Notes: a model not told the origin generated them from the letters alone. Positions 14,153 to 60,328 are shown, counted from the stretch's first letter. The stretch: 64,000 bases of DNA from Acidobacteria bacterium bin61 (GCA_963578475.1 CAUZCL010000008.1:56997-120996); one strand, 5' to 3'. Program-made: numbers and translations.

Positions 14153-14198
14153 CCAGATTCGAAAACCGACGTCTAGCTCTTCTGGGGCGACATCAAGG

Positions 14199-14825
14199 AT
14201 GCAGCCTCGTATGGTCGTCATCGCCGGGCCCGCCGGCAGTGGCAAATCCACCGCTTTTCCAGTCGTTGAAAGTGGCGTCGACGGCTTCAACATCGATGAT
14301 CGCGCTGCCGAGCTCAACGGCGGCTCCCACAGGAACATCCCCACTCAAACACGGGCTCGAGTCAACAAAGAGTGCGAGGAATTCATCGAAGCGCATATTC
14401 GCGAAGGTAAGAGTTTCGCGGTCGAGACCACCCTTCGTAGCGACATCACCCTTCGGCAGGCGGCTGCCGTCCGCCGCAAGGGCTTTTCTCTTCAAATGAG
14501 GTATGTCGCGCTCGAGGATCCCGAAACGAACGTTGAGCGAATCGCGAACCGGGCCGAACGAGGTGGTCACTCGGCCACGCCTAGCCGCATCCGCGAGGTC
14601 CGCGAGGCCGGTCTGAAGAATTTCCCCAAGGCCGTTCGCGAGTTCGACCGCGTCCGTGCTTACGACAATACCCGATGGGCGGAACGGCCCCGACTGGTCT
14701 TCCACGCCCGCGATGGCAAGGCCCGCTACGTCGCCGAGAAATTCCCGTCGTGGCTTCAGGGAAGCCTCAGGGACACAGAGTACGAGATCCGCGACCCAGA
14801 GTCCGGAAAGGAAGTTGAGAAATAG
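14199..14825 (+). CDS. Zeta-toxin-family / COG4185-type P-loop kinase
   Basis: MVVIAGPAGSGKST Walker A at the N-terminus. About 200 aa, with family-typical size and layout (FNIDD..., ETTL, ...NVERIANRAERGGH). Confidence 0.65.
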   Translation: MQPRMVVIAGPAGSGKSTAFPVVESGVDGFNIDDRAAELNGGSHRNIPTQTRARVNKECEEFIEAHIREGKSFAVETTLRSDITLRQAAAVRRKGFSLQMRYVALEDPETNVERIANRAERGGHSATPSRIREVREAGLKNFPKAVREFDRVRAYDNTRWAERPRLVFHARDGKARYVAEKFPSWLQGSLRDTEYEIRDPESGKEVEK

Positions 14826-14852
14826 ACGCCCCACAGAGGGCTGCGCAGCTTG

Positions 14853-16400
14853 CTAGACCTCTCGAGGACCCGGCCTCCCGTCCTCGATCTCGAAAGAAGC
14901 TAAGGTCTCGATCCCGGTATCGGGATCGGTGACGTCTCCGACGGCGCGGAGGTCGACTTGGGCGCGCTCTTTGGTGAGCTCTACACGGGCATAGCCGTGC
15001 CGAGCGCTGTTTCCGTACTGGATGTGCGGATTGTCCTTTTGTATTGCGGCGCGACGCTCTTCGGGCATGCCTGAGGACGTGATCGAGCCGCCGACGATTT
15101 CGCTCGCGATGGGTTTCGCATGCCCGTCACGAAAGTCAGTTTTGAGGTCCGACACCCAGAACGCGTGCACGTCGCCGCCAATGACGAGAGGGTTTCTTGG
15201 CGCGCTCTCGGCAATGAACTCCAGAAGCCGGGCCCGGGCCGCTGGGTAGCCGTCCCAACCATCGGTCCAAAAGGCGCGCCCGGGGCCAGGTGCGCGGTCG
15301 AGCTCGGCCATGAGCGTCTGCTGCGCGAGAATGTTCCACCGAGCCGTCGACCGCTCGAGATTTCGATGGAGCCAGGCTTCCTGCGCATCGCCTAGAAGGG
15401 TCAAGCTCGGGTCGAGCCGCGCGGGACAATCTGCAACGGTGTTCGAGCCGCCCTCGCCGGGACGCGGGCAAACTTGCGGCGTTCGATATTGCCGGTCGTC
15501 GAGCACTTGAAAGCGCGCGAGCTCGCCATAGGCGACTTCCGTGTAGAGACGCAGATGCTCGCCGAGTGGCGCCGCGCTGCGCCGGAGAGGCATGTGCTCG
15601 TAATACGCGTGGTACGCTGCCGTGCGGCGGCGGCGAAACCACGCTTCGGGATGGAGCTCTTCGCTGGCAAGATCGGCGTAGTCGTTGTCCACTTCGTGAT
15701 CGTCCCAGGTCACCAGCCAAGGGGCCGCCGCGTGCGCCGCTTGAAGATCCGTGTCGCTTTTATACTGCGCATAACGGTTTCGGTAGTCCTCGAGGGTCAC
15801 GGGTTCCGGCGCCGCGTGCCGGCGAACGCGCACACCGCTCGCTTTCCCTTCGTAGATGTAGTCTCCGAGATGGATCACGAGGTCGGGCTCGTCCGCGATC
15901 ATGTGGCGATAGGCACTGTAGTAACCCTTCTCGTAATGCTGGCACGAGGCGAACGCAAACCGGAGGCGTTCGGGAGTCGACTCCAAAAGCGGCGCCGTAC
16001 GCGAGCGACCGATGACACTCTCTTCGCTACCGACGCGGAACCGATACCAATAGGGGCGTTCCGGCTCGAGCTCTTCGACCTCGACGTGCACCGAGTGCGC
16101 CCAGTCCGGCGAGGCAATGGCGGAACCGTTCCGCACAACATTGGCCATACGGTCGTCGTTCGCGACTTCCCACTCCACGACAACGGGGGAGGGAGGCATC
16201 CCTCCGCCCATGAGCGGCACGGGTGCGAGGCGTGTCCAGATGACAAACCCTTCCGAAAGAGGGTAGCCGGAAGCAACACCCAACGTGAACGGATTTCTCG
16301 AAAAACGTACGGGACTTTGCCGGATCAAGAGCGCTGGCGCGGCCGCCGCCGTGCTTTTCAGAAAGTGGCGTCGTGAAACTCCGTGTTTTGGTGTTCGCAT
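14853..16400 (-). CDS. phoD: Alkaline phosphatase D (PhoD), Tat-exported
   Basis: ATG 16398-16400 gives MRTPKHGVSRRHFLKSTAAAAPALL (twin-arginine). Motifs: FASCQHYEKGYY, HLGDYIYE, WDDHEVDNDY, GGDVHAFW. Confidence 0.9.
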   Translation of the reverse strand: MRTPKHGVSRRHFLKSTAAAAPALLIRQSPVRFSRNPFTLGVASGYPLSEGFVIWTRLAPVPLMGGGMPPSPVVVEWEVANDDRMANVVRNGSAIASPDWAHSVHVEVEELEPERPYWYRFRVGSEESVIGRSRTAPLLESTPERLRFAFASCQHYEKGYYSAYRHMIADEPDLVIHLGDYIYEGKASGVRVRRHAAPEPVTLEDYRNRYAQYKSDTDLQAAHAAAPWLVTWDDHEVDNDYADLASEELHPEAWFRRRRTAAYHAYYEHMPLRRSAAPLGEHLRLYTEVAYGELARFQVLDDRQYRTPQVCPRPGEGGSNTVADCPARLDPSLTLLGDAQEAWLHRNLERSTARWNILAQQTLMAELDRAPGPGRAFWTDGWDGYPAARARLLEFIAESAPRNPLVIGGDVHAFWVSDLKTDFRDGHAKPIASEIVGGSITSSGMPEERRAAIQKDNPHIQYGNSARHGYARVELTKERAQVDLRAVGDVTDPDTGIETLASFEIEDGRPGPREV

Positions 16401-16448
16401 GAACAGGTTTCCTCTCGAACGACGAGAGCGTAGCACACGATGCAGAAA

Positions 16449-16480
16449 CCGGAGCGCTACTATAAGGAACAACGCTCCGG
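16449..16480 (-). terminator. Candidate intrinsic terminator of the propeller/ADH operon
   Basis: Minus-strand RNA CCGGAGCG-(16 nt)-CGCUCCGG followed by UUUCUGC, starting 52 nt after the stop at 16532. The loop is large, so this is tentative. Confidence 0.35.
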
Positions 16481-16531
16481 GTGGACGTTCCCCACCGAGT
16501 TTGGGGTCCCGATGATGATGCAGGCTTCAAT

Positions 16532-17650
16532 TCAGGAAATGTCAGAGCCGAAGGCGTACAGAATGCCGTCCTGCGAGCCGATGACGACCCGTCCATCGGC
16601 GAGCGCGGGGGAGGCGCCGAACGGAGCGCCCGCGTCGAACTGCCACAACTTCTCGCCGGTCGTGAGCTCGAAAACGTAGAAGCGGCCGTCACCCGAGCCG
16701 ATATAGACGCGGTTGCCCGCGATGACGGGAGAGGACTCGACGCGCGCGCCCGTACGGTAGGTCCAGAGAGAGGCGCCCGATTCTTGATCAATCGCGTGCA
16801 CAATCTTGTCACGGCCGCCGATGACGACGACGCCATTCGCTACCGCCGGGGAGGAATAGAAAGGGAAGTGGCGGATCGGGTGCTCATACCGCCAGAGGTA
16901 CTCTTTGTTCTTCAAATCGACCGCAAGCACGTCGTTGTTGAACGTTCCGTAATAAGCTATACCGTCGACGAGAGCCGGAGAGGAAGCCGTATAAGCGCCT
17001 GAGTTCAACTGCAGCTTCTCGGTGCCATCTTCGAGATCGATGCCGCGCAACAGGGCGTCGCATCCCGTTACGTAAACGAGCTCGCCGTCAAATCCGGGCG
17101 TGCTGTGAAGAGGCCCGAGGCTTTCAAAGGTCCACTGAAGCTCGCCCGTCTTGCGGTCGAGCGAGTATAGGTGCTCGTCATAGGACGCGATGAGCACACG
17201 GTTACCAATGACGACCGGAGAGGCTTTGATTTCCGCGCCGGTCTCGAACGTCCAGCGGGTCTCGCCGTTCGCTGTGTCAAAAGCGTGCACGACGCCGAGC
17301 AAGTCGCCGACATAGACGGTGCCGGCGATCACCATAGGCGAGGATTCGCCAAAGCGGTCCTCCTCCTCGCCGAAATCGCGCTTCCAGAGGACCGAGCCGT
17401 CGTCGAGGGCGAGCGCAGCGACGAGCCCTGGCAGTGCGGTCATATAAACGACGTTGTCGACGATGGCGGCGGAGGAGTCGATGGAAAAGCCGGCCTCGAA
17501 GCTCCAGAGAAGCGTCAGCTCGTCGGGGATCTCGGCGGCAGAGCGTCCCGTGCGCATTGGGCTTCCGCGAAACTGATTCCACGTGTCTTTCGGCGCGACG
17601 GTCTCTTGCGACGCGACCGCCAACAAAGCGAGGACACTCAGTAGGCGCAT
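16532..17650 (-). CDS. PQQ-like (BamB-type) beta-propeller repeat protein P1, secreted
   Basis: Signal MRLLSVLALLAVAS. The mature N-terminus has the WNQFRG motif shared by all six paralogs. Repeated blades of the type G.vy.g..dg.l.A.d..tG...W. Confidence 0.85.
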   Translation of the reverse strand: MRLLSVLALLAVASQETVAPKDTWNQFRGSPMRTGRSAAEIPDELTLLWSFEAGFSIDSSAAIVDNVVYMTALPGLVAALALDDGSVLWKRDFGEEEDRFGESSPMVIAGTVYVGDLLGVVHAFDTANGETRWTFETGAEIKASPVVIGNRVLIASYDEHLYSLDRKTGELQWTFESLGPLHSTPGFDGELVYVTGCDALLRGIDLEDGTEKLQLNSGAYTASSPALVDGIAYYGTFNNDVLAVDLKNKEYLWRYEHPIRHFPFYSSPAVANGVVVIGGRDKIVHAIDQESGASLWTYRTGARVESSPVIAGNRVYIGSGDGRFYVFELTTGEKLWQFDAGAPFGASPALADGRVVIGSQDGILYAFGSDIS

Positions 17651-18750
17651 CGGTAAATCTCCAGAGCGGCCGCTTCGTCGAAGGGCCGCGGGTTAAAGTG
17701 TCCCGTCCACTGCTTCGTGGCGGCGTGGGCGAGGCTCGGAAGGTCTTCTTCCAGGATGCCGTCATCACGAAGGCGCCGCGGAAGACCTCCGAGCTCGGCA
17801 AGCTCTTCTAGGCGGCTCGCGAGCGACTCGCCATCTTGGTGGAGCGCCGCGTAAGCCTGTACCACCGTATCCGCGTTGAAGCGCACCACGCTCGGCAAGC
17901 ACATCGCGATGGCGCGTCCATGGGCGGTTCCATAGCGCTGGGTGAGGGGGTTCGCGCAGGCATGGGTGGCGCCGAGCATCGAGTTCTCGATGGCGACCCC
18001 TGCATAGAAAGCACCGAGCTGCATCGCGCTTCGAGCTTCGAGGTCTTCGGGCTCCTCAAGAACGCGGGCGTAGTTTCCCACGAGCAATCGAAAAGCCTCC
18101 CGGGAGTAGAAATCGGACAAGGCGTTTCTCTTCGTGGTCACTGCGGTCTCGACAGCATGGGCAAGGGCATCGTAGCCCGTGATTGCCGTGACCGCCGTCG
18201 GCTGTGTTACGGTGAGCTCGGGGTCGAGAATCGCTATGCGAAAGCGCGAGGAGAGATCGGAGCAGGCCATCTTCACATGCGTCTTCGCGTCCGAGATGAG
18301 CGCGTAGGATTGCGCCTCGCTCCCGGTCCCGGCCGTCGTCGGGACGCCAATCATGGGGAGAAGCGGCTTCTTGTTCTTTGCGAAGCCGACATAGTCGCGT
18401 ATGACACCGCCATTGGTGAGGACAAAATTGACGCCCTTGGCGCAATCCATCGAGCTTCCTCCACCGAAGCCGATGAACGAATCGACGTTCTTCGACGACG
18501 CGAAGGCGCGTCCCCGCTCGACCATGTCGGTGTCGGGGTTCTCTGTGAAATCGCCGAAGACGAAGACTTCGATCCCGACGCGCGCAAGCAAGCCGAGGGC
18601 GCGATCAACATGGGGCGTCGCGAGAAGTCCGGGGTCGGCCGCCAACATCGTACGTTCAAAGCCGAGCTCTTTCGCGAGCTCGCCTAGGCGCTCGAGAGCG
18701 CCGCGGCCAAACACAACCCGCGGCTCGGGTCGGTAGTCGAAAGATTTCAT
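17638..18750 (-). CDS. Iron-containing (group III) alcohol dehydrogenase, no signal peptide
   Basis: GFGGGSSMDCAKG, PTTAGTGSE, GYDALAHAVE, GATHACANPL. The stop overlaps the P1 start by 13 nt, and the start lies 3 nt after the P2 stop. Confidence 0.9.
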   Translation of the reverse strand: MKSFDYRPEPRVVFGRGALERLGELAKELGFERTMLAADPGLLATPHVDRALGLLARVGIEVFVFGDFTENPDTDMVERGRAFASSKNVDSFIGFGGGSSMDCAKGVNFVLTNGGVIRDYVGFAKNKKPLLPMIGVPTTAGTGSEAQSYALISDAKTHVKMACSDLSSRFRIAILDPELTVTQPTAVTAITGYDALAHAVETAVTTKRNALSDFYSREAFRLLVGNYARVLEEPEDLEARSAMQLGAFYAGVAIENSMLGATHACANPLTQRYGTAHGRAIAMCLPSVVRFNADTVVQAYAALHQDGESLASRLEELAELGGLPRRLRDDGILEEDLPSLAHAATKQWTGHFNPRPFDEAAALEIYRCAY

Positions 18751-18753
18751 GCT

Positions 18754-20184
18754 CTATTCGTTGGCGAGCGCGAACAGCTGATTTCGGCTCGCGATATATA
18801 AAACGCCGTGCGCGGGAACCGCTGTCCCGTAGACGGAGCTCCCGAGGTTCATCTCGACGAGAACTTTTTCTTCTTTGCCTGGCGCAAGGACGACGACATC
18901 GCCGTCTTCGTCCCCGAGATAGATCTTGCCATCGACGACCATGGGCGACGACCAGACGGCCGCGAAGGTGTCGTGCACCCAATACGGCTCTCCTGTCTCG
19001 ACGTTCAGCGCATGGAAGAAACCGCTGAAATCCGGCATATAGATGATGCCTTCATGGATCGCCGGCGTCGAGATCGAGCGGCGGATCTTGTCGTAATGCC
19101 AGACGCGGCCGCTTTGGGTGATGTCGCCGCGCTTGGTCGCGTCGATAGCGTAGAAGTGCCCCACGCCCTCGCCGTGCTCCGGGTCCTGACCGTTTGCGAT
19201 ATAGACCTTGTCGTTGTAGATCACGGGAGTGCTGATGATGTTGTTGCGTGTTTTCGGCCAGGTAGTGCCGGGCGGGTTGCTGTCGAACACCCACAGCTTT
19301 TCGCCGGTCTCGGCTAAGTAGCCGCGCACCCAGCCGTCGCCTTCGCCCATTACGACTTGAACAACGCCTCCGATCTCACCGACAGCGGCCGAGGACCACT
19401 GCCCGTGAAGTATTTTCTCTCCCACGGGGTTGTTCTCCCACACGAGCTCGCCCGTGTTCTTGTTGATGGCTACCAGGTCGGGGCTCAGCGGAGAGGGGAT
19501 ATTTACGTGGCTTTCGTCATGTCCGTTCGAAGTGTTCACGAAAATCAAGTCGCCATACATCACGGGCGACGAGTTCGACATGTTGTGCGGGAAGGCCCCG
19601 AGCTCTTCCATCATGTCGAACTTCCAGATGATGTCTCCGTCCTGCGGGCTCTTGTACTGCTCGTCCTGATAGGGCCCGTCGTTCTCGCCGTCGAGAAAGC
19701 CCTCGGTGTCGAGCGCGAGCACTTCGCCTCTGTTGGTGACGTAGTAGAGCACGTCACCGTCGACGAGCGGCGAGGAGCAAACGCCTTGGAACGGCCAATC
19801 GTTGACGCGGCCCGCGGGATGCTTGTCGGTGACCATTTGCCACAAGAATTTACCGTCGGCCTCATTGATCGCGACGAGAATGCCTTTGTCTCCCGGCATC
19901 TCTTTGTCATAAAGCGCCTCGTTGTTCGTTCCGACAAAGACTTTGCCGTTAGATACAACGGGGTTCCCATAGGTCTGTGAGCCGAGCGCGGCGACCCATT
20001 TCACGTTGGTGCCGGCATTGACATCCCACTCGAGGGGAAGACCGGTCATCGAGGACACCATGTTGCGATCGGCGCTGCCGCCCCACATGGTCCAATTGCC
20101 GTCCTTTGAATTCTCAGCGTAGACGTCGAGGGTTACCATGATCGCTAAAACGGAAAGTGCGGTTGCCCAAACGAGCTTTTTCAT
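18754..20184 (-). CDS. PQQ-like beta-propeller repeat protein P2, secreted
   Basis: ATG 20182-20184 (AGGAAG upstream) gives MKKLVWATALSVLAIMVTLDVYA, then WTMWGG. Propeller blades throughout. Confidence 0.85.
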   Translation of the reverse strand: MKKLVWATALSVLAIMVTLDVYAENSKDGNWTMWGGSADRNMVSSMTGLPLEWDVNAGTNVKWVAALGSQTYGNPVVSNGKVFVGTNNEALYDKEMPGDKGILVAINEADGKFLWQMVTDKHPAGRVNDWPFQGVCSSPLVDGDVLYYVTNRGEVLALDTEGFLDGENDGPYQDEQYKSPQDGDIIWKFDMMEELGAFPHNMSNSSPVMYGDLIFVNTSNGHDESHVNIPSPLSPDLVAINKNTGELVWENNPVGEKILHGQWSSAAVGEIGGVVQVVMGEGDGWVRGYLAETGEKLWVFDSNPPGTTWPKTRNNIISTPVIYNDKVYIANGQDPEHGEGVGHFYAIDATKRGDITQSGRVWHYDKIRRSISTPAIHEGIIYMPDFSGFFHALNVETGEPYWVHDTFAAVWSSPMVVDGKIYLGDEDGDVVVLAPGKEEKVLVEMNLGSSVYGTAVPAHGVLYIASRNQLFALANE

Positions 20185-20195
20185 CTTCCTGCCTT

Positions 20196-22385
20196 TCATT
20201 CGTTGGCGCGTACTTCGAGATTGTCGATAAACACTTCGGTCGGCAAGGCGTCGGCGAAGATGCCGGGACTTCCTTGCCGGCTCGGGTTCTCGTCGCGCCG
20301 CTCGATTTGCCACTCAGAGGGCTCGACCTCCCCGCGTAGCCATACTTTGCCGCGAGCGCGGACGGAGCCGTCCTCGAGCGTGGCGACTTCGAGCTTCATT
20401 CGATACCACGTGTCCGGCTCCCATTTGAACGAGACTCTAGCGGTGCGCTCGGTCTCGGGCTGCCACGACTGAAGCTCGAGCCGCTGATGGCTTCCGAGAA
20501 GCATCAAGAGATAACGCTGCGCGATAAGGCCGGCATGTCCCATTTGGCGGCGCTGCCTCGTGGCAAGAACGTCCGCTTGCACCGTGTAGTCGGACCAGTC
20601 CGAAGGTCCCAGGAACACGCGCGCGCGGTGCAGAAAAGGATTGTCGGCCTTCTTCACGAGCACCTTTTCGCCATCGACCTCGCGGATCTCGAACTTTCCC
20701 GTAGCGTTGATCCACGGCCGCGGAACATTCTCGAGCACGTCGAAATTCTCGCTCCATGGAAGAGGCGGGATCACGCGCGCGCGGGCCGAGCCCGATAGCA
20801 CGCCCAGGCTCGCGTGGATCTTTCCACCTTGGGGCGTCGAGCCGCGGGCCGCGGTGAAGCGCCCGCCCTCGACCGTCCCATCCAGACCTTCGAGGGACCA
20901 CGTGGCTTCGCCGATCCGCGCGACCCGTAAGAAACGTCCGGCCGCGTTGAACAGACGCGCTTCGAGCTCGACGGTGCCACCGGGCTCGAGTGTTACGTCT
21001 GTGGGCGCGACTTGAATCCAAGTCGGCGCGCCGGGTGTACCGCTCGGAGCGGTGGGTGGCGGCGGCACCGCTGATTCCTTGCGCGCCGACCCGATCGCGT
21101 AGAGCGCCTGCGCCGAGGCCAGATAGACGCGGCCATCCGCAATCGCGACCGAGGCGTAAATCTCTTCGAACTCGTCGCCGGCGGTCAGCTCCTCTCGGTC
21201 ACGGATCACAGCACCATCGGCCTGAAGCTCCAAAATGTAGAACGTGCCGTTGACGGTGCCGACATAGAGCTTGCCGTCGGCGAGAACCGGCGACGCGCGC
21301 TGGATGGTGCCGAGGTTCAAGGTCCATTCTTCGGCGCCACTCACCACATCGAACGCTTTGAGGTTGGCGCTGTTGTCGAGCTGGTAGAAGCGGTCGCCGT
21401 CGAGGACGGGGGACGAATAGCCGCCAAGAAAGCCGCCCACGGACCATTTCGCGCTGTCGACGTCGATGGAGCCGCGCATGGTCGCATCGATCGCTGCCAC
21501 GAGACCCATCTGGCTCGTGCGAAGGTTCTCCTCGCCCTGGCTCACGATTGCGATGTTGCCCTTGAGGATAGCGCCGGTGTTGATGCCGCGCTTGGAATAT
21601 TCGAAGCGCCACACCGACTCGCCCGTCTGAGGCATGATCGCGTGCATCGCTCCATCGCCGCCTCCCGTGATGAGAAGTCGCACACCTCCGACGTCGGCGA
21701 TGACAGGCGGCGCGTAGGTCGTGTCATAAGGGCGCCCACCGGGAGAGCTGACCCATTGTGTTTCCCCCGTGGTTTTGTCGAAAGCGAAGAAACGCTGGCC
21801 GCCGCGAGCTTGCTCGCCCCACCCCGAGCTCAGACCGCTCACGATGAGCAGGTTGCCGTCGATGATAGGTGAGGCGGTGCGGCCGCCATGGGTCGTGATG
21901 AGGCCGAAGTCTTCGGCAAGCGAGCGCTCCCACAAAACGGCGCCGTCGGCGCTGAACGCGTACACAGAGCCTCCGACGGTATAAACAAAGATGTTGCCCG
22001 TTATCGGGTCCGCGACCGGGGAGGCCCAGCCTACGCGGTGAGGCGGTACGTCGCTCAAGTAGATGTTCATGCGATGCTCCCACAAGAGCTCGCCCGTCTC
22101 GACATCGAGACACATGATGCGCTCCTGCAGGCTCGCGCCTTCTCCAGCAGCGTTTTGCAGATAGATGTGGTCGCCGAGAATGATGGGCGTCGAGCGGCCG
22201 CCATAGGGAGCCCGCCAAGCGAGATTCTCGCCATCGCGAGACCAGCTCGTGGGAAGGCCGGTCTCCGCGGAACGGCCGTCTCGGCTCGGGCCTCGCCAAT
22301 CCGTCCAGTCTTCACTGGATGAGCCTGCGAAAGATCCTGCCCCTATGAACGTCACGAAGATCGTGAAGAGAGTTTTTCTGAACAT
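20196..22385 (-). CDS. PQQ-like beta-propeller P3 fused to a C-terminal Ig-like domain and a concanavalin/DUF1080-like jelly-roll (tentative), secreted
   Basis: ATG 22383-22385 gives MFRKTLFTIFVTFIGAGSFAGSS, then WTDWRGPSRDG. The propeller runs to about aa 500. It is followed by VAPTDVTLEPGGTVELEARL (Ig-like) and PWINATGKFEIREVDGEKVLV...WYRMKLEV...VFIDNLEV (beta-sandwich). Confidence 0.8.
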   Translation of the reverse strand: MFRKTLFTIFVTFIGAGSFAGSSSEDWTDWRGPSRDGRSAETGLPTSWSRDGENLAWRAPYGGRSTPIILGDHIYLQNAAGEGASLQERIMCLDVETGELLWEHRMNIYLSDVPPHRVGWASPVADPITGNIFVYTVGGSVYAFSADGAVLWERSLAEDFGLITTHGGRTASPIIDGNLLIVSGLSSGWGEQARGGQRFFAFDKTTGETQWVSSPGGRPYDTTYAPPVIADVGGVRLLITGGGDGAMHAIMPQTGESVWRFEYSKRGINTGAILKGNIAIVSQGEENLRTSQMGLVAAIDATMRGSIDVDSAKWSVGGFLGGYSSPVLDGDRFYQLDNSANLKAFDVVSGAEEWTLNLGTIQRASPVLADGKLYVGTVNGTFYILELQADGAVIRDREELTAGDEFEEIYASVAIADGRVYLASAQALYAIGSARKESAVPPPPTAPSGTPGAPTWIQVAPTDVTLEPGGTVELEARLFNAAGRFLRVARIGEATWSLEGLDGTVEGGRFTAARGSTPQGGKIHASLGVLSGSARARVIPPLPWSENFDVLENVPRPWINATGKFEIREVDGEKVLVKKADNPFLHRARVFLGPSDWSDYTVQADVLATRQRRQMGHAGLIAQRYLLMLLGSHQRLELQSWQPETERTARVSFKWEPDTWYRMKLEVATLEDGSVRARGKVWLRGEVEPSEWQIERRDENPSRQGSPGIFADALPTEVFIDNLEVRANE

Positions 22386-22500
22386 GTCTGGTTTATGCTT
22401 TCGTGAACCGATGCCTGAATCCGTCCTAGAGGACCCTATTATCTTTTTCTGGGTGTGCGGCGTCAAAGAAATGGCCGGCGCCTGGAACTTTAGCTTGAAC

Positions 22501-22518
22501 AAACCTGAGACCAGGTTT
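22501..22518. promoter_or_regulatory. 18-bp palindrome AAACCTG-agac-CAGGTTT in the divergent promoter region between the two propeller operons
   Basis: Read directly. It lies in the 209-bp gap between start 22385 (-) and start 22595 (+). Confidence 0.3.
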
Positions 22519-22594
22519 CTGGAGTGGGCCCTTATGGAGTACGATTGCGTAGTCACAGAAAGGGAGTGCCTGTGAGGCGCTCGGCTGCCACTTC

Positions 22595-23992
22595 ATGCGT
22601 TTTGTCTTCGCTGTTCTCATCCTTGTCCTTCCCTCGACGCTTCTCGCCTCCGAATGGTCGCGTTTTCGCGGGCCGAACGGAACCGGCGTCGTCGACACCG
22701 ACAAGCTTCCGCTTCACTTCGGTCCGTCCCAAAACGTTGTGTGGAAGACGCCACTTCCTCCCGGACATTCGTCTCCAATCCTCACCGAAGAAAGGATCTT
22801 CCTGACGGCGTTCGAAGACGAGACTCTCTTCACTTATTGTATCGATCGCGGAACCGGCGAGATCTTGTGGCGAAGAGAAGCACCCCGCACACGCGTCACG
22901 GATTTCGACGCCCGCAATAACTCCGCATCGCCGAGCCCTGTGGTCGACGACAAGAGCGTTTTCGTCTTTTTTTCCGACTTTGGACTTCTTGCCTATGACT
23001 TCGAAGGCGAGGAACTCTGGCGATTCGCCGTCGAAGACTTCGACAACATTTACGGGATGGGGGCCTCGCCCATCCTCGCGGGCGACCACGTCGTCCTCGT
23101 ATGCGACCAGGCCACGAACTCCTACATCATCGCGCTCGACAAGAGGCGTGGGAAAGTCGTCTGGCGAAAGCGCCGCCCCGAAGCCAAGAGCGGTCACTCG
23201 ACGCCCGTGCTCCACGAGACCAAGGACGGATTACTCGAGATCCTGGTCCCCGGTTCGTTTCTTCTGACCTCCTACGCCGCCAAGACCGGTGAGAAGCTTT
23301 GGTGGGTGAGCGGTCTTTCGTTCGAGATGAAGTCGACGCCCGTTCTCGCCGGCGACATGCTATACATCAACGGCTATGGTGCGCCGGAGAACCAACCAGG
23401 GCGCGACGTCGTGGCCGCTCCGTTTACGGAGGTCGAGCCGAACGGTGATGGATTGCTTACTCAAGAGGAGGCCACGGGACATGTGCGCTCGTGGTTTGGC
23501 TTCGTTGACCTGAACGCTGACGGGCGCCTCGACGCGGCCGAGTATGACTACTACGTCGCGGCGCTCGCGTCGAAGAACGGTATTCTCGCGGTCCGCATAG
23601 GCGGTGAAGGCGACATGACGGAGCACAACGTGGTGTGGACCTATCACAAGCGTGTCCCCCAGCTCCCGTCGCCTCTTTTTTATTGGGATGTTCTGTACAT
23701 GGTGAATGACGGCGGGATCGTCACGACGCTCGAGCCAGAAACAGGGAGCATCATCGCGCAGGGACGCCTCAAAGGCGCCGTCGACAACTATTACGCCTCG
23801 CCCGTCGCGGCGGACGGCAAGATCTTCATGGCGAGCCAGCTCGGGAAAGTCGCGGTGCTCAGTCCTGCGGGCGATCTGGAAGTGCTGGCGGTCAATGACC
23901 TCGACGATTTGATCCACGCAACACCTGCCATTGGCGACGGGCGCCTGTACATACGCACCCGCAACACGCTCTATTGCTTTGGGCGAGAGTGA
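22595..23992 (+). CDS. PQQ-like beta-propeller P4 with an inserted EF-hand pair, secreted
   Basis: MRFVFAVLILVLPSTLLASE, then WSRFRGPNGTG. The insert EPNGDGLLTQEE...DLNADGRLDAAEYD (nt 23435-23548) matches the DxNxDGxIxxxE loop. Confidence 0.85.
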   Translation: MRFVFAVLILVLPSTLLASEWSRFRGPNGTGVVDTDKLPLHFGPSQNVVWKTPLPPGHSSPILTEERIFLTAFEDETLFTYCIDRGTGEILWRREAPRTRVTDFDARNNSASPSPVVDDKSVFVFFSDFGLLAYDFEGEELWRFAVEDFDNIYGMGASPILAGDHVVLVCDQATNSYIIALDKRRGKVVWRKRRPEAKSGHSTPVLHETKDGLLEILVPGSFLLTSYAAKTGEKLWWVSGLSFEMKSTPVLAGDMLYINGYGAPENQPGRDVVAAPFTEVEPNGDGLLTQEEATGHVRSWFGFVDLNADGRLDAAEYDYYVAALASKNGILAVRIGGEGDMTEHNVVWTYHKRVPQLPSPLFYWDVLYMVNDGGIVTTLEPETGSIIAQGRLKGAVDNYYASPVAADGKIFMASQLGKVAVLSPAGDLEVLAVNDLDDLIHATPAIGDGRLYIRTRNTLYCFGRE

Positions 23993-23994
23993 GC

Positions 23995-26127
23995 ATGTTC
24001 TGGCTTGTAGCGCTCCTCCTTATCCAAAACGGTGAGGACCTCCACGAAGCCGCGCGGCGAGGCGATCTTGCGAGAGCGTGGGCACTCATCGAGCAAGGCG
24101 TCGACGTCAATGCGCGGAATCGCTATGGCGCGACGGCACTTTTCTTCGCTGCAGAAAAAGGCGACCTCGACATGGTGACGCTCCTCGTGGAGCACGGAGC
24201 ACGCCTCGACATTGAAGACAGCTTCTACAACATGAGCGCGCTCAGCCGTGCTTTGAGCGGTGAGCATTTCGACGTCGCGCGGTTTCTACTCTCTCGCGGC
24301 TCGCCGGGCGCGGACGCCGTTCTACATGTGGGCGTCGCGAACGAGGACCAGGCGCTCGTCGAGGCTGCTCTCGCGGGAGACTTAACACGCCCAGCCTTCG
24401 ACCGCGCTCTAGCGATTGCGGCGGGAGACGTTCGCGCACTTCTCGAGGCCGCCAAAGCTCCAGCCGGCGCACCCGCCGCGCCCGTAGAGCTCTCGCCGGT
24501 AGAGCTCTCGCGCGAGGAGCTCGAGCGCTTTACCGGCGGCTATGAAAATGAATCCGAGCGTCGGTCTCTCACGATTGCTCTACGTGACGGGGCGCTCGAA
24601 GTGTCGGGAGATCTTTCCGTGCGGCTTCGTCCGAAAGGCGAGCAACGCTTCGAAGTTATCGGCAGCGACGCCGAAGTCTTTTTTGGAGGCCGTGGCGGTA
24701 TGATTGAGCGCCTCGTCCTTCGCCAGGGCGAGACCTCCACTACCTTTCGCCCGCTCGACGAATCGGAGGCTCGTGGGGAGGCGGCTCCTGTCGACAACCC
24801 GAACGTCGTCGTTTCGACAGACGTTGCCAGCTCCGCCCGCGCGCCGGCCGCTCCGTGGCCAGGATTCCGCGGTCCGAACCGATCCGGTATTGCGGACGGG
24901 CAGGGCGTGCCGATCGAGTGGGATGCCGAGACAGGGAAGCACATCCGTTTCAAAACAGAGCTTCCGGGCTTCAGCGTGTCGAGCCCGGTCATTTGGGGCG
25001 AGCGCATCTTTGTTTTGACCGCGGTAAGCGGCGCCGGGAACGACACCTTTCGGACCGGCCTCTACGGGGACGTCACTCCGGTGGAAGATCTCTCAGAGCA
25101 TCGCTGGCTTCTCTACGCCTTGAGCACCACGGACGGTGCGATTGTCTGGGAGCGCGAGCTTCACAGGGGTGAGCCGGGAACGAAGCGGCATCCCAAGTCG
25201 AGCCAAGCCAATGCGACGCCGGTGACGGACGGCAAGCACGTCGTGACCGTGCTCGGCTCGGTCGGTCTCTTGCTTTGCTACGACGTCGACGGAAACCTTC
25301 TCTGGAAGAAAGACATCGGAGTCCTCAACGCAGGCTGGTTCTACGATCCGGATTATCAGTGGGGGCACTCAAGCTCGCCCATTATCTACGGCGACACAGT
25401 GATTCTGCAGGCGGACCTCCACAACGGATCGTTTCTCGCCGCCTATGACCTCGATAGCGGGGAAGAAGTCTGGCGAACGCCGCGGGACGAGGTTATCCCG
25501 ACATTCAGCACCCCGGCGGTGTATCACGGCGAGATGCGCGATGAGCTCATCACCAACGGCACCGTGATCCGCGGCTACGACCCCAAGACGGGCGAGCTTC
25601 TCTGGTTTCTCGGCCCCAACTCCGAAATCCCGATCGGCGTGCCCGTGGTAACCGAAGATCTCATCTACGTAACCGCGGGCTACCCGCCCATCCGACCCAT
25701 CTATGCCATCCGTCCAGGAAGCCGCGGAGACCTCGCGCTGCCCGAAGGTGTCGACAAGAGCGAAGCACTCGCGTGGAGCAAGAACCGCGGCGGCACCTAC
25801 ATACCGTCTCCACTCGTCTATCGCGGACACTTCTACACGAACGCCAATAATGGCCGCTTGACGTGCTACGACGCGGTGACGGGGGAGCGCGTCTACCGCG
25901 CACGCATTGGTGGTGTCGGCGGCTCCTACGCGGCATCGCCGGTGGCCGCGGATGGACGTCTCTACTTCACTAACGAGGAAGGGGACACCTTCGTCGTGCG
26001 TGCAGGAGATGAGTACGAGCTTCTCGCAAAAAACGGCGTGGACGGGACGGTGCTATCCACGCCCGCAGCTTCGAACGGGCTTCTAGTCATCCGCACGCTA
26101 ACGCATGTATACGGGATTTCCGAATAA
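23995..26127 (+). CDS. Ankyrin repeats + small beta domain (DUF3471-like, tentative) + PQQ-like beta-propeller P5
   Basis: ATG 23995 lies 2 nt after the P4 stop. ANK repeats: LHEAARRGDLARAWALIEQGVDVNARNRYGATALFFAAEKGDLDMVTLLVEHGA. Linker domain: FTGGYENESERRSLTIALRDGALEV...ERLVLRQGETSTTFRPL. Then WPGFRGPNRSG and propeller blades. Confidence 0.8.
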   Translation: MFWLVALLLIQNGEDLHEAARRGDLARAWALIEQGVDVNARNRYGATALFFAAEKGDLDMVTLLVEHGARLDIEDSFYNMSALSRALSGEHFDVARFLLSRGSPGADAVLHVGVANEDQALVEAALAGDLTRPAFDRALAIAAGDVRALLEAAKAPAGAPAAPVELSPVELSREELERFTGGYENESERRSLTIALRDGALEVSGDLSVRLRPKGEQRFEVIGSDAEVFFGGRGGMIERLVLRQGETSTTFRPLDESEARGEAAPVDNPNVVVSTDVASSARAPAAPWPGFRGPNRSGIADGQGVPIEWDAETGKHIRFKTELPGFSVSSPVIWGERIFVLTAVSGAGNDTFRTGLYGDVTPVEDLSEHRWLLYALSTTDGAIVWERELHRGEPGTKRHPKSSQANATPVTDGKHVVTVLGSVGLLLCYDVDGNLLWKKDIGVLNAGWFYDPDYQWGHSSSPIIYGDTVILQADLHNGSFLAAYDLDSGEEVWRTPRDEVIPTFSTPAVYHGEMRDELITNGTVIRGYDPKTGELLWFLGPNSEIPIGVPVVTEDLIYVTAGYPPIRPIYAIRPGSRGDLALPEGVDKSEALAWSKNRGGTYIPSPLVYRGHFYTNANNGRLTCYDAVTGERVYRARIGGVGGSYAASPVAADGRLYFTNEEGDTFVVRAGDEYELLAKNGVDGTVLSTPAASNGLLVIRTLTHVYGISE

Positions 26128-26168
26128 GCGCTAAAGTTCCCCGGGACGTTCTGGAGGTAAACGAACGA

Positions 26169-27425
26169 ATGAAGGCGTTACCCTTACTCATAGTCGTGAC
26201 GACACTCGTAAGCTCCGTACTCGCCGAGGACTGGCCGCAATGGCGGGGGCCCACGGGCGACGGCATCAGCGGCGAGACCGGACTTCCTAGTGTCTGGAGC
26301 ACGACGAAGAACGTCGCGTGGCGGATCCCCATGCCCGACCGTACCGGCGCGACGCCCATCATCTGGGGCGAGACCGTTTTCCTGAACGTGGCCGGTGGAG
26401 GCGAGCTCCATCTTTGGGCGCTCGACCGCAAGGACGGACGCATCAAGTGGAAGAAGTTTCTGAGCGGCGGCGATCACCGCGAGCGCAAACAAAACATGTC
26501 ATCGCCGTCGCCGGTAACGGATGGCAAGCACGTTTGGGTGATGACGGGGACCGGCATCTTGAAGTCCGTCGACTTCGACGGCAATGAGCTCTGGTCGCGC
26601 AACATCCCGGCTGATTACGGTAAGTTCGGCCTCAACTGGGGCTATGCATCGTCGCCGCTTCTGTTCCAAGGCGCACTCTACTTGCCCGTGCTGCACGGCA
26701 TGAAGACCGACGAGCCGTCTTATCTCTTGCGCATCGACGCCGCAACGGGAAAGACGGTCTGGCGGGTCGAGCGGTTGACGGACGCCATCCGCGAATCCCC
26801 GGATGCCTACATCACGCCCGCGCTTCTGGAATATGACGGCAAGCACGAGATCGTACTAACGGGCGGTGACGTCGTGACTGGCCACGACCTAGAGACGGGC
26901 AGAGAGCTTTGGAGAGCCGATGGGCTCAACCCGAACAACGATCGTAATTACCGCATCATCGCCTCTCCGGTCGTCATGGACGGCATCATCTACGCACCGA
27001 CCCGCGTGCGCCCCATGCTCGCCCTCAAAGCGGGAGGCCGCGGCGACATCACGACGAGCCATCTGCTGTGGACCTTCAACAATGGTCCAGACGTTCCGAC
27101 ACCCGTTACGGACGGCAAGTATCTCTATGTCGTGAACGACCGCGGCGTGACGTTCAATCTCGATGCGAAGACCGGCGAGGTCATTTGGGGTTCGAAGCGT
27201 ATCGCGGCTGGAACCTACAGCTCGTCGCCCGTGCTCGCGGACGGGAAGGTCTACATAACGAACGAAGACGGGGTGACCACGGTCATGAAGGCGGGAGCCG
27301 AGTTCGGCGTGATCGCGGAGAACGATCTCGAGAGCTACACGTTGAGCTCCGTCGCCGTTTCCCAAGGGCAACTGTTCTTGAGGAACGCCGATTTTCTTTA
27401 TTGTATTGGCGACAGGCGTCCCTAG
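26169..27425 (+). CDS. PQQ-like beta-propeller repeat protein P6, secreted
   Basis: [21 protein letters not shown], then [11 protein letters not shown]. Propeller blades throughout. Confidence 0.85.
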
Positions 27426-27542
27426 GCTCTAACCCGTCAGAAGCGAGGATTTTGTTCGCGTTTTAGAATTCAATAGGTACGACGGACGCATTCGGTAGGT
27501 TTCGCCTTTTCACTTACCTTAGATTCAGTAAGCTCGGCCCGT

Positions 27543-29480
27543 TCACGGCACGGTCTTCTTTCTGCCGTACTGCCGGACGATGACGATAACCAGCAACACG
27601 AACCCTGCTGCGTTGGCCACGGACAACCCTACGCCCGCGAAGCTCACGTCACGGCCGGGGTAGAACAGAAGCGCTGCCGCGATGATGAGTACGGCGCGCA
27701 TGGCCGCTGAGAGCGCTCCGCCGAAATAGCCCGCGATAGCGGCGGCAAGGGGCACGATGCCTGTGATGGCGATCGCCGAAGCGAGAAAGGGACGTAAGAA
27801 GCCGACCTCTGATCCGTCCGCGCTCAACAATAAGAGCTCGGGGCGGAAGACGAACATGAAAGGGAGCGTGAACCCCACGAGGGCGAAGCGAAAAGCGGCG
27901 AGCGCGGCGCTCATGATGTGGCAATCCGCTATAGACGCCGCCGCATAGGCTGCGAGTGCGACCGGCGGAGTCACCATGGACATCATCCCGAAATAGAAGA
28001 TGAAAAAATGTGCGGCGAGTGGCACGACCCCGAGCTTTCCGATAATGGGCCCGATGAGGGTGGCCATCAAAAGATAGCAGACCGCCGACGGCAAGCCCAT
28101 GCCGAGGACGATCGATCCAACCATAATGAGAGTTAGCGCGAGGAGCAAATTATCGCCAGCAATCATCAGGATCGTCGACGGAAACTTGGTGCCGATTCCG
28201 GTCAGAGTGACGACGCCGAGAATGATGCCGACTGACGCCGCCGCGGCCACCAGTGGGACGCCGCCTCTCGCCGTTTTCGCGAATGCTTTTTCGACCGACC
28301 GCCAGCTGAGACGTGTTCGCTCGTTCAAAAAGCTGAGGACGATTACGAGCAGAAGCGCGACGCTGACCGATCGGAACACGGTATAGCCGGCTACGATAAA
28401 GCCCACGAGCGCAGACAGTGCCAGTGCAAAAAGAAACCCTTCATAGCGAAAGCTCGAGCTCTCGGGCACGGCACTGTCCTTCGGCTCGATGTCGCCGGCA
28501 CCGATGCGCTGCGAATAGAAGTGCACGATCAGAAAAAGCGCAAGGTAATAGATGAACGCGGGGATGAGCGCCGCACGGATGATCTGCAAATAAGTCACGG
28601 GCGGTGTCACGAGCTCGAGCATCATATAGGCGCCCGCACCCATGACGGGGGGCACGAGCGCGCCACCCGAGCTCGCCGCCGCGGTCACGCCGGCTGCGAG
28701 ATGCGGGCGAAAGCCGATGCTGCGCATGAGCGGGATCGTGAACGTTCCTGTTGTCGCTGTGTTCGCGACCGCGCTTCCTGAAAGCGAGCCCATGAGTCCG
28801 CTGCTCAAGACCGCAACTTTCGCCGCCCCCCCAGGGCTCTTTCGGAACAAGCGTTTCGCGAGATCCACGATGAAACCGGTCGCTCCGGTCGCTTCTAGAA
28901 AAGCCCCAAAGAGCACGAACAAGAAGACGTAGGAGAACATCACCTTGAGCGCGATGCCGAACACGCCTTGGCTGTGAAGAAAGGTCTGAGCGACGATGCG
29001 CTCGATCGAGTAGCCGCGATGGGGAAAGAGCCAAGTGGGAAACGAAGAGCCGCTGAGGGAGTAGATAAGAAAGATGGACGCGAGAACAGGAATCGCCCAT
29101 CCGAGGCAGCGCCGGGTCGCCTCCAGGACGATGAGAACACCGAGGCCTCCGACGAAGAAATCGAGCGCCGACTCGGCGCCCGCACGGTCGCCGAGCGACA
29201 AGCCTCCCGTCCAGATCAAGCGGAACGCCGGCTCCGTTTGCACCACGACGTAGAGACAGACGAACACGGCGGCGAGGCCCGAGACCAAGTCGACGAGCCA
29301 CGCCGCCTTATGCTCGAAGCCTATTGGAAACAAGAGAAAGCAAAGAGAAAGGCCGAAGAGCCCGAAAATAGCCAGCTGCGATTGCGGTGAGAGCTGGGCG
29401 TAGTTCACTTCCGCAAGAACGAAAAGGGACAGAGCGACCCCAAGCGCTCGAACAAGATGCCCGCGGATCGAGCTGGGCAT
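27543..29480 (-). CDS. TRAP transporter fused (4TM/12TM, DctQM-like) permease of the TAXI type
   Basis: ATG 29478-29480 lies 7 nt after the TAXI stop. 645-aa polytopic membrane protein directly downstream of a TAXI receptor gene. Confidence 0.8.
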   Translation of the reverse strand: MPSSIRGHLVRALGVALSLFVLAEVNYAQLSPQSQLAIFGLFGLSLCFLLFPIGFEHKAAWLVDLVSGLAAVFVCLYVVVQTEPAFRLIWTGGLSLGDRAGAESALDFFVGGLGVLIVLEATRRCLGWAIPVLASIFLIYSLSGSSFPTWLFPHRGYSIERIVAQTFLHSQGVFGIALKVMFSYVFLFVLFGAFLEATGATGFIVDLAKRLFRKSPGGAAKVAVLSSGLMGSLSGSAVANTATTGTFTIPLMRSIGFRPHLAAGVTAAASSGGALVPPVMGAGAYMMLELVTPPVTYLQIIRAALIPAFIYYLALFLIVHFYSQRIGAGDIEPKDSAVPESSSFRYEGFLFALALSALVGFIVAGYTVFRSVSVALLLVIVLSFLNERTRLSWRSVEKAFAKTARGGVPLVAAAASVGIILGVVTLTGIGTKFPSTILMIAGDNLLLALTLIMVGSIVLGMGLPSAVCYLLMATLIGPIIGKLGVVPLAAHFFIFYFGMMSMVTPPVALAAYAAASIADCHIMSAALAAFRFALVGFTLPFMFVFRPELLLLSADGSEVGFLRPFLASAIAITGIVPLAAAIAGYFGGALSAAMRAVLIIAAALLFYPGRDVSFAGVGLSVANAAGFVLLVIVIVRQYGRKKTVP

Positions 29481-29487
29481 AGACGAG

Positions 29488-30465
29488 CTAACTTTCGTCG
29501 TCCGTTTCGGGCCAAATCCCAATCTCGCGATAGAAGCGGATCGCGCCCGAATGGAACTCGACGCCCGTGTCCCGGACAACGTTTCCGGGGTTGATGAAAT
29601 TGCCGGCCGGATGTTTCTCGGTGACGCTCTCGCGGTTTTGGTAGATGGTTTTGGTGATCTGGTAGATCAGCTCTTCGTTCGCCTTTGCAGAGGCAATGAG
29701 ATGCATCGAGCCGACATCGAGGCCGTGATAGTCCTCGTCTTGGCCGCGATAGGTGCCCGCGGGGACGGTGTGTTCGTAGAAGAACGGAAAGTTGGCGACG
29801 AGCTCGGCGCGTGCCCCCATGTCGAAGGGCACGAGCAAGATGTCTTGTGACGTGGATGCCTGCACGATGGACGCGGTGGGAACAGCTCCGCCCAGAAACG
29901 CCGCCACCGCCGAACCGTCCGCCAAGTTGTCGACCGCGCCTGCTTGCGTGTTGTTGAGAGGCGTGAAGTCATCATAGGTCACCCCGTGCGCTTCGACGAT
30001 CGGCCGGACGAAGGATTTCCACCCGGCACCCGCGGGACCTACGACCGCGCGTTTGCCCCGGATATCCGCAATCGACGCGACGCCCGAGTCGCGGGGTGCT
30101 ACGAACATCGCGACATTCGGCGCGAGCGTCATTACGGAACGCAAACCGTAAGCCTTTTCCCAGAGGCCTTCGCCGCGCACGGCGAAATAGGTAATGGCCG
30201 CGTTCGATAGCGCGATGTCGAGCTCTCCCGATTCGAGACGGCGGATGTTCTCCTGCGAGCCCTTCGTCGCCTCGGAGGTGACCTCCCAACCCGGTCCGTA
30301 TTGGTTGAGCACTTCACCGAGTGCTCCTCCGACAACGAAGAAAGCACCTCCGGGAGGCGCCGTGCCGATGCTGACGAAACGCAGGCTCGAAGTCGAGTCT
30401 TCGCCTCCGCTACCGCAAGCGGTCAGCGCGACGAGTGCGAGTACCGAATAAACTATCTTGGACAT
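29488..30465 (-). CDS. TAXI-family TRAP transporter solute-binding lipoprotein
   Basis: ATG 30463-30465 gives MSKIVYSVLALVALTACGS. FVSIGTAPPGGAFFVVGGALGEVL is the typical TAXI N-terminal block. Confidence 0.8.
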   Translation of the reverse strand: MSKIVYSVLALVALTACGSGGEDSTSSLRFVSIGTAPPGGAFFVVGGALGEVLNQYGPGWEVTSEATKGSQENIRRLESGELDIALSNAAITYFAVRGEGLWEKAYGLRSVMTLAPNVAMFVAPRDSGVASIADIRGKRAVVGPAGAGWKSFVRPIVEAHGVTYDDFTPLNNTQAGAVDNLADGSAVAAFLGGAVPTASIVQASTSQDILLVPFDMGARAELVANFPFFYEHTVPAGTYRGQDEDYHGLDVGSMHLIASAKANEELIYQITKTIYQNRESVTEKHPAGNFINPGNVVRDTGVEFHSGAIRFYREIGIWPETDDES

Positions 30466-60325: not shown

Positions 60326-60328
60326 GGC

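Follow-up and report, generated by a model that had tools for sequence, protein, structure and literature searches.

In Pseudomonas, the ped/exa cluster brings together periplasmic pyrroloquinoline quinone (PQQ) propeller enzymes (PedE, PedH and ExaA), the propeller PedA2 and a cytoplasmic iron-containing alcohol dehydrogenase (Fe-ADH), YiaY/ErcA (PMC12997753). This is the nearest described system to the locus analysed here, positions 16532-27425 of a 64-kb stretch of DNA (64,000 nucleotides, referred to as the window) from Acidobacteria bacterium bin61 (GCA_963578475.1 CAUZCL010000008.1:56997-120996), in which six exported beta-propellers of the PQQ_2 family and one signal-less group-III Fe-ADH are encoded by two divergent, tightly packed operons. 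Both systems combine several periplasmic PQQ-superfamily propellers with a single cytoplasmic group-III Fe-ADH, but the propellers of the window score below the quinoprotein cut-offs and are without a Cys-Cys pair, the cluster shows neither a cytochrome c nor a pqq gene, and no kinase is co-cistronic with the ADH, which lies inside the propeller operon and overlaps the gene for the propeller P1. The conserved unit of the locus is P3-P2-FeADH-P1 in fixed order, while the divergent arm is variable. The original prediction had put this cluster forward as an undescribed system; a full-text literature search found no account of it, and the lanthanide and PQQ literature that was found concerns other families. 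Overall, what that prediction had observed is confirmed and its interpretation is partly supported. The seven open reading frames (ORFs) it had claimed are all present where it placed them:

16532-17650, minus strand: P1, 372 amino acids (aa), final gene of the core operon, encoding an exported and highly regular Beta-prop_ACSF4/PQQ_2-type propeller.
17638-18750, minus strand: Fe-ADH, 370 aa, a group-III iron-containing NAD(P) alcohol dehydrogenase without signal peptide.
18754-20199 (alternative ATG at 20184), minus strand: P2, an exported eight-bladed propeller, probable start ATG 20199.
20196-22385, minus strand: P3, 729 aa, an exported propeller with Ig-like and jelly-roll domains, first gene of the core operon.
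22386-22594, no strand: the divergent intergenic region between P3 and P4, 209 bp.
22595-23992, plus strand: P4, 465 aa, an exported PQQ_2 propeller with an inserted EF-hand pair.
23974 (TTG) or 23995 (ATG) to 26127, plus strand: P5, comprising leader or anchor, ankyrin, linker and propeller.
26169-27425, plus strand: P6, 418 aa, a minimal exported PQQ_2 propeller.

Other described proteins resemble individual members of this set. BamB (YfgL), an eight-bladed envelope propeller of the PQQ_2 fold, is the best structural match found by Foldseek, but the proteins of the window are 16-20% identical to it, include no lipoprotein, form multiple paralogous families with extra domains and have a different genomic context. 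Tetrathionate hydrolase (TTH/TetH; 6L8A/7CQY), an exported, cofactor-less, eight-bladed propeller of the PQQ_2 type, is among the top matches in both sequence and structure, but only at 14-17% identity and sequence E-values of 1e-6 to 1e-15, and no sulfur-oxidation genes lie nearby in the window. Its activity means that a PQQ_2-type fold can catalyse hydrolysis without PQQ, and to our knowledge it is the sole characterised cofactor-less enzyme of this fold. YxaL of Bacillus and the archaeal surface propellers (3HXJ and the Cake templates) are likewise secreted, cofactor-less PQQ_2 propellers, with a strong match of P1 to the 3HXJ/Cake group and a structural match of P3 to YxaL, but they are products of single genes rather than of a conserved multi-paralogue operon with an ADH. 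A further likeness, to BlaI/BlaR1 (MecI/MecR1), comes from Planctomycetota, in which a tandem of P2 and P1 propellers occupies the extracellular sensor position of an M56 protein beside BlaI, whereas the proteins of the window are free-standing and no M56 domain or BlaI gene is found in their cluster. The sensor of BlaR1 is in turn an enzyme derivative, and the parent enzyme recognises the ligand that BlaR1 senses.

The arrangement of the minus-strand operon is shared with many other genomes. Within the window, the proposed 3-nt gap between P2 and the ADH, the 13-nt overlap of the ADH with P1 and the 41-nt gap between P5 and P6 hold, but the proposed 11-nt gap between P3 and P2 is not favoured: the P2 start at ATG 20199 is preferred because it is retained in orthologues and overlaps the P3 stop as ATGA at 20196-20199. 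Gene-called contigs with ADHs 65-88% identical (the ADH-anchored set) carry a P3-like gene (725-732 aa), a P2-like gene (475-501 aa), the Fe-ADH and a P1-like gene (367-373 aa) in that order, with one lineage lacking P1. On these contigs P3 and P2 overlap by 4 nt or are separated by 11 nt, and the 13-nt overlap of ADH and P1 is retained in five gene-called loci, not in all lineages. On a larger scale, an alignment scan with P2 across one genome per species found a P2 relative in at least 586 species genomes. Synteny was counted by tblastn in the best 80 of these at least 586 genomes, ranked by P2 match, with each count restricted to loci with enough flank. All of the best 80 loci carry the acidobacterial-type cluster, with P3 directly upstream of P2 in 65 of 68 loci, the ADH downstream of P2 in 58 of 65, P1 downstream in 64 of 65, and one or more opposite-strand propellers upstream in 52 of 62, three being the commonest number. 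Clustering of the flanking ORFs recovered as wide neighbours an ankyrin (Ank) protein (26 loci), a membrane-anchored propeller (23 loci) and an SSF symporter (19 loci), and no others.

The nearest relative of the window (95% identity) belongs to Marinacidobacterales within the class Vicinamibacteria, and the remaining labels among the best 80 comprise further Vicinamibacteria, Blastocatellia/Pyrinomonadaceae, Chloracidobacterium and Terriglobia/Bryobacteraceae, besides a few implausible bins. The cluster is common to hundreds of soil and marine Acidobacteriota species and to at least one labelled Planctomycetota genome. Since the neighbourhood check found it conserved across acidobacterial classes and recurring in that second phylum, it is no local accident, and an explanation by recent local duplication only fails. 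Seven metagenome-assembled genomes (MAGs) with a typical cluster and a P2 at 65-69% identity (loci L046, L052, L057, L065, L067, L086 and L087) bear the labels Heliobacteriaceae, Clostridia, Heliomicrobium or Acidimicrobiia and are probably mis-binned or mislabelled.

Within the core, P2 is under the strongest constraint. Its orthologues are 64-95% identical, with a mean column identity of 66-70%, and across 56 complete loci its median identity (68%) lies above those of the ADH (61%), P3 (56%) and P1 (52%), P2 having the highest identity of the four core proteins in 56 of 56 loci, a comparison in which the choice of loci by P2 similarity rank somewhat inflates the P2 identity. Among the ADH-anchored loci, four of five likewise have P2 ahead of the ADH. 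An AlphaFold2 (AF2) model of P2 is eight-bladed, with a predicted local distance difference test (pLDDT) value of 84.9. The invariant motifs LGSQxYGN, GTNNE, GRVNDWPxQG, FPHN, SNGxDESHVNxPSP, LHGQW, NGQDPEHGEGxGH, DFSGFxH, WVHD and GDEDGD all fall in D-to-A and B-to-C loops according to the DSSP string of this model. In the propeller fold, such loops form the face that bears active or binding sites, and from loop topology the invariant His, Asp and Glu loops of P2 are predicted to share this one face (the 'top face'). Many residues of the face are kept in homologues at 37-53% identity. Stronger constraint on P2 than on a housekeeping-type dehydrogenase marks a specific, important activity rather than generic 'BamB-like' filler.

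Versions of the core in other bacteria join its parts physically. A HMMER search with P2 returned 1,123 clusters (at 50% identity) at E <= 1e-30, and many of the matches are 36-54% identical copies inside long proteins. These include P2+P1 fusions (P0363 and P0370, with a P1 half 40-42% identical to P1 of the window), fusions of a BlaR1-type M56 domain with P2 and P1 (P0368 and P0371), P3+P2 fusions (P0459 and P0401, the latter including the Ig and jelly-roll domains of P3), a P5+P2 fusion (P0366), a P2+P6 fusion (P0367) and a Ser/Thr kinase-WD40 protein with a P2-type propeller at its end (P0377). The idea of an envelope complex, raised in the original prediction, gains support from the P3+P2 and P2+P1 gene fusions, and we consider it likely that P3, P2 and P1 act together physically.

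Two kinds of context accompany these versions in Planctomycetota. In one (L092:9135-13774, plus strand), a BlaI gene (Penicillinase_R) is followed by a gene for an M56 BlaR1-like protein with an extracytoplasmic tandem of P2-type and P1-type propellers, and this tandem beside BlaI is predicted to act as a ligand sensor. The other is the locus of the P3+P2 fusion P0401 in a Planctomycetota MAG (L089), which reads MarR, P3P2, DUF3311, SSF, AMP-binding, aldehyde dehydrogenase (ALDH), Fe-ADH and P1-like. Its Fe-ADH and P1-like protein are 49% and 38% identical to those of the window, its ALDH is divergent, and its adenylating enzyme is short and F390/PaaK-like. A second locus of this type, which has a DUF1501 gene, carries P2-like, AMP-binding, a small ORF, ALDH, Fe-ADH and P1-like, and a third carries MarR, P3-like, P2-like and AMP-binding.

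All six propellers of the window match Pfam PQQ_2 (PF13360) at 85-215 bits against a cut-off of 27.6, with E-values of the order of 1e-24 to 2e-63 (P1 2e-63, P2 1.7e-27, P3 1.3e-24, P4 1.7e-28, P5 5.7e-24, P6 1.8e-28). The motif W-x-x-[FW]-[RG]-G, said earlier to open every mature protein, is present at all six propeller starts, and a six-frame translation of the 64-kb window contains exactly six matches, one per start. In P5, however, it does not mark the mature N-terminus, as it lies at residue 288 behind the Ank and linker domains. Because the motif also recurs at the propeller starts of distant homologues, it looks to be shared by the propeller type and has little value beyond PQQ_2 membership. 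The proposed paralogy of the six is borne out by homology in pairwise BLASTP (E 1e-8 to 1e-57), with identities of 22-33%, P4, P5 and P6 forming a subgroup and P1 an outlier. P1, P2, P3 and the ADH have clear 1:1 orthologues in other genomes, with identities to the other paralogues of only about 25%; judged by these identities, the propellers are ancient paralogues in distinct 1:1 orthologous families, with no recent duplication. Hydrophobic N-terminal leaders precede the motif in the orthologues of P1, P2 and P3 and are found on the ADH in no lineage. On account of these leaders the propellers are most likely exported (Sec-type); the ADH is cytoplasmic. A count of blades by regular expression was uninformative.

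The other two core propellers differ from P2 in architecture. P1 matches Pfam Beta-prop_ACSF4 over its full length (2e-78, 264 bits against a cut-off of 133), matches Cake8-10 and 3HXJ among Protein Data Bank (PDB) sequences, and has orthologues 47-91% identical. P3 consists, as proposed, of a propeller, an Ig-like sandwich and a jelly-roll in that order: its AF2 model (pLDDT 88.7, predicted template modelling score (pTM) 0.89) and the DSSP assignment give an eight-bladed propeller at about aa 27-431, a linker, an Ig-like (Big_2-like) domain at about aa 456-538 and a jelly-roll at about aa 544-727. A profile search of the C-terminal 290 aa against Pfam and PDB sequences returned weak Big_2/LigA matches for the Ig domain and no reliable family for the jelly-roll, with hints of ConA-like and DUF3472 at E > 0.03. 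Full-length orthologues of P3 are 49-89% identical. By Foldseek, P3 matches BamB, Cake, YxaL and tetrathionate hydrolase in a full-length search dominated by the propeller. The nearest solved structures to P2 and P3 together are BamB, the designed Cake propellers, YxaL and tetrathionate hydrolase, with target-normalised template modelling (TM) scores of 0.74-0.88 to BamB and Cake8.

The accessory propellers of the divergent arm carry further modules. The EF-hands claimed for P4 are there as an inserted pair of Ca type at about aa 275-330 (EF-hand_5 at 2.3e-5 with the excised insert), and the canonical loops D-x-[DN]-x-[DN]-G...E are kept in 21 orthologues, down to 46% identity. P5 has the predicted succession of ankyrin repeats, small domain and propeller: a hydrophobic N-terminal leader or anchor is followed by ankyrin repeats at about aa 23-110 (Ank_2 at 1e-14), a linker with a weak DUF3471 match (E 0.046) and the propeller from residue 288. 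P6 is closest to P5 (33%) and then to P4 (28%) in pairwise BLASTP, and its orthologues, at 62-92% identity in several loci, are in some cases placed downstream of P1. As a whole the P4-P5-P6 arm is variable: it has zero to five propellers, Ank may be a separate gene or part of a fusion, and the nearest relatives have a truncated P5. In Blastocatellia, Ank(+DUF3471) is a separate exported gene adjoining a P5-type propeller, and in a Pyrinomonadaceae genome the divergent arm consists of such an Ank(+DUF3471) gene, likewise separate and exported, with three propellers after it. In the closest relatives (L001/L002:2149-3711, minus strand) the P5 orthologue is 505 aa long and aligns only to P5 residues 1-462; with its propeller cut after about four blades, decay of the accessory arm in some lineages is suggested.

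The Fe-ADH proves, as claimed, to be a signal-less group-III enzyme inside the propeller operon, with Pfam Fe-ADH and ADH_Fe_C matches and no leader peptide. It aligns residue for residue with Zymomonas ADH2 (ZmADH2), and its PDB sequence matches are Mdh, DhaT and ZmADH2 (E ~1e-54 to 1e-57). Residues GGGS96-99, D194, H198, H263 and H277 (numbered by alignment to 3OWO) are invariant in 121 of 121 sequences. In ZmADH2, D194, H198, H263 and H277 are the metal ligands and GGGS is the dinucleotide-binding motif; with its metal and NAD motifs intact, the Fe-ADH looks catalytically competent. Its best NCBIfam match is ErcA (NF041833), at 263 bits against a cut-off of 550 and so below the equivalog threshold, and the models for lactaldehyde reductase and choline dehydrogenase score it about as well. 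ErcA is also the best NCBIfam match of the Fe-ADH at the Planctomycetota locus of P0401. Neither in the window nor in the related loci inspected does a histidine kinase adjoin the ADH. At residue 267, within an invariant HACANP signature, Asn replaces the His267 of ZmADH2, DhaT and the aligned methanol dehydrogenases, and this Asn267 is possibly a marker of unusual substrate or cofactor handling.

Transporter genes adjoin the cluster in several lineages, represented in the window by one system:

27543-30519, minus strand: TAXI-type TRAP transporter, with a fused DctQM (27543-29579) and an NMT1_3/TAXI binding protein (29488-30519), by Pfam DctM and NMT1_3.

This TAXI-TRAP system is convergent on the P6 end, and the same adjacency is found in L001, L002, L005, L009 and L010 at 58-93% identity (six sources including the window). 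It is a possible uptake partner, and its membership of the cluster is uncertain. About 20 acidobacterial loci have a pair of SSF and DUF3311 symporter genes instead of TRAP, and the SSF+DUF3311 pair at the Planctomycetota locus of P0401 is 51-54% identical to the pair flanking these clusters.

As a working model, which as a whole we hold only tentatively, we posit a periplasmic multi-propeller recognition or processing complex combined with solute uptake and cytoplasmic oxidation of an alcohol or aldehyde. P3, P2 and P1 would assemble in the periplasm as one recognition or processing unit, in which the conserved face of P2 would serve as the centre of ligand binding or catalysis, possibly with help from a metal or Ca and in the manner of a hydrolase or lyase, the Ig and jelly-roll arm of P3 would hold a larger substrate, and the accessory propellers would widen or tune binding. 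The unit would capture or release a small alcohol- or aldehyde-bearing solute, which would be imported by the neighbouring secondary transporter (TAXI-TRAP in the window, SSF+DUF3311 in Blastocatellia and Planctomycetota) and then oxidised by the NAD-dependent Fe-ADH. In Planctomycetota, the next steps would fall to the ALDH and the adenylate-forming enzyme, leading from alcohol to aldehyde, acid and acyl-adenylate. A bolder and rather unlikely form of the proposal is that P3-P2-P1 constitutes an unrecognised periplasmic hetero-propeller enzyme, with the P2 face a new PQQ-independent (possibly metal-centred) active site and the product passing to the Fe-ADH pathway. If true, this would mean a new enzyme family and a new catabolic route for an abundant environmental substrate in soil and marine Acidobacteriota and Planctomycetota, major phyla that rank with the least understood.

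Several observations weigh against this model. The ALDH and the F390/PaaK-like adenylating enzyme were searched for and are absent from all acidobacterial loci and from the window, and the transporter neighbours vary by lineage and could reflect plain synteny. The core is incomplete in some loci, with the ADH missing in L015, L031, L047 and L075 and displaced in L078, and P3 missing in L027, L032 and L034. As to P2, its top face rests on loop topology rather than on clustering in three dimensions, the ranking of loci by P2 similarity favours it as described above, and at L006, which belongs to the ADH-anchored set, P2 has no lead over the ADH (64% versus 65%). The sensor use of the P2-P1 tandem fits pure binding as well as catalysis, and the best NCBIfam match of the ADH is a regulatory protein, ErcA.

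The last two points lead to the main rival explanation, a sensing or structural envelope module in which the propellers would be a periplasmic ligand-binding scaffold and the Fe-ADH an ErcA/YiaY-like regulator, which we regard as improbable. It would account for the P2-P1 tandem serving as the extracytoplasmic domain of BlaR1-type M56 transducers beside BlaI, for the P2-type propeller that ends the Ser/Thr-kinase-WD40 protein P0377, for ErcA being the best match of both the ADH and its Planctomycetota orthologue, and for the highly regular, scaffold-like P1. Moreover, periplasmic PQQ propeller enzymes are encoded in a cluster under ErcA/YiaY control (PMC12997753). However, ErcA works with a co-cistronic kinase (ErcS/YiaZ), whereas the acidobacterial cluster has no conserved regulator, be it a histidine kinase, BlaI or another; the ErcA score of 263 against 550 is far under the cut-off, with the lactaldehyde reductase and choline dehydrogenase models at similar scores, and the ADH retains all catalytic residues. 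The Planctomycetota ADH, placed among an ALDH, an adenylating enzyme and an SSF symporter, has a metabolic context.

Two further explanations take the fold at face value. It is very unlikely that the six are genuine quinoproteins, that is, divergent PQQ- (Ca- or lanthanide-) dependent periplasmic dehydrogenases for which the P4 EF-hands would handle the metal and the Fe-ADH would be the cytoplasmic counterpart. Such a view draws on the fold itself, weak Pfam PQQ and TIGR03075 matches, Trp-docking-like A-x-D-x-x-T-G-x-x-x-W repeats in the sequences, a weak LanM-like match of the P4 EF-hand pair (E 0.003) and the analogy with ped/exa. Against it, no propeller matches a characterised quinoprotein family at cut-off, in line with the original prediction: with TIGR03075, whose cut-off is 480 bits over a full-length model of roughly 530-600 aa, the scores are 26-97 bits, those with TIGR03074 and TIGR04528 likewise fall far short, and the PF01011 matches are short fragments. 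With 370-480 aa, the propellers are also much shorter than PQQ alcohol dehydrogenases, which have about 570-700 aa. A vicinal Cys-Cys disulfide over PQQ is a hallmark of quinoproteins of the methanol dehydrogenase (MDH) and ADH types, and none of the six propellers, with one to three Cys each, contains CC. Within the cluster, the scanned window ORFs and the inspected flanks of related loci, to which the look-up was confined, neither a cytochrome c nor a pqq gene turned up, and the structural neighbours are BamB, Cake and tetrathionate hydrolase, not quinoprotein dehydrogenases. It is more improbable still, to the point of being scarcely credible, that the propellers are BamB paralogues aiding outer-membrane protein assembly. 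The top Foldseek matches are BamB structures, and Joint Genome Institute (JGI) annotations name orthologues BamB, the database names of orthologues being generic ('PQQ-binding-like beta-propeller repeat protein', 'outer membrane protein assembly factor BamB'). The earlier description 'BamB-like' holds for the fold, but none of the six is a lipoprotein, no Cys being found in the first 40 residues of any of them, and none reaches a BamB model cut-off (TIGR03300 50-150 bits against 285, NF008351 31-123 bits against 423). In addition to the identity of 16-20%, six to eight distinct paralogues with Ank, EF-hand, Ig and jelly-roll modules and an ADH are unlike a BAM accessory role. By the criteria tested, none of the six is a quinoprotein dehydrogenase or BamB.

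We regard the locus as an envelope propeller cluster linked to alcohol metabolism, and there is a reasonable likelihood of a new enzyme family within it. The Acidobacteriota rank with the most abundant bacteria of soils, and a large share of the genes conserved in them has no assigned function. Here a four-gene core is kept in order in hundreds of species and is echoed by fusions and by an extended Planctomycetota operon. Once identified, its substrate could expose a carbon-acquisition route or a form of sensing that is widespread. P2-type propellers recur in over 1,000 sequence clusters, among them BlaR1-type sensors and kinases, so that characterisation of a single member would provide annotation for a large family.

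Candidate regulatory sites and other classes of element were searched for in and around the cluster. The spacer between P3 and P4 contains a sigma-70-like site on the minus strand, from 22466 to 22438 (TTGACG, a 17-nt spacer, GATAAT), about 50 nt upstream of the P3 start and facing P3. Counts of promoter-like and terminator-like sites in the region are not above chance as judged by shuffled sequence, and position is for this reason the sole argument for a P3 promoter here. Rfam at permissive thresholds matched no family within 14000-30000, and the sole match to the PADLOC defence models is a generic ankyrin match of P5, giving no anti-phage link.

Two neighbouring genes were considered as further components and rejected. 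A PhoD phosphatase gene with a twin-arginine translocation (TAT) signal (14853-16472, minus strand) begins 59 nt beyond the P1 stop, on the same strand and without an intervening predicted terminator, and may be co-transcribed with P1 in the window; elsewhere it is not syntenic with the cluster, save about 4.6 kb away in L008. DUF3179 occurs in 1 of 80 P2-anchored loci and not in the window, although it adjoins the cluster in the ADH-anchored loci L001-L004 and L007, lying between the arms in the nearest relatives. The DUF3179 genes at L002:5207-6154, L004:5257-6219, L007:5159-6157 and L008:3962-4912 (all on the minus strand) have a conserved in-frame TGA at ...AAVW-[TGA]-PL(A/G)N with a GC-rich hairpin about 20 nt downstream, and are candidates for selenocysteine proteins split in two by gene callers.

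Three other features of the window lie outside the cluster. A probable operon at 58541-63992 (minus strand) encodes a 594-aa ankyrin-repeat protein, a DUF1552 (HXXSHH) protein and a DUF1592/1588/1595/1587/1585 (PSD/PSCyt) protein, and would represent a second ankyrin-linked envelope system in the window. Between an amidohydrolase gene and PhoD, an ORF at 14199-14825 (plus strand) encodes a 208-aa AAA_33/zeta-toxin-like P-loop kinase. Finally, a single 688-aa ORF at 41300-43366 (plus strand) combines chorismate mutase (CM_2), prephenate dehydratase, ACT and DAHP synthase domains.

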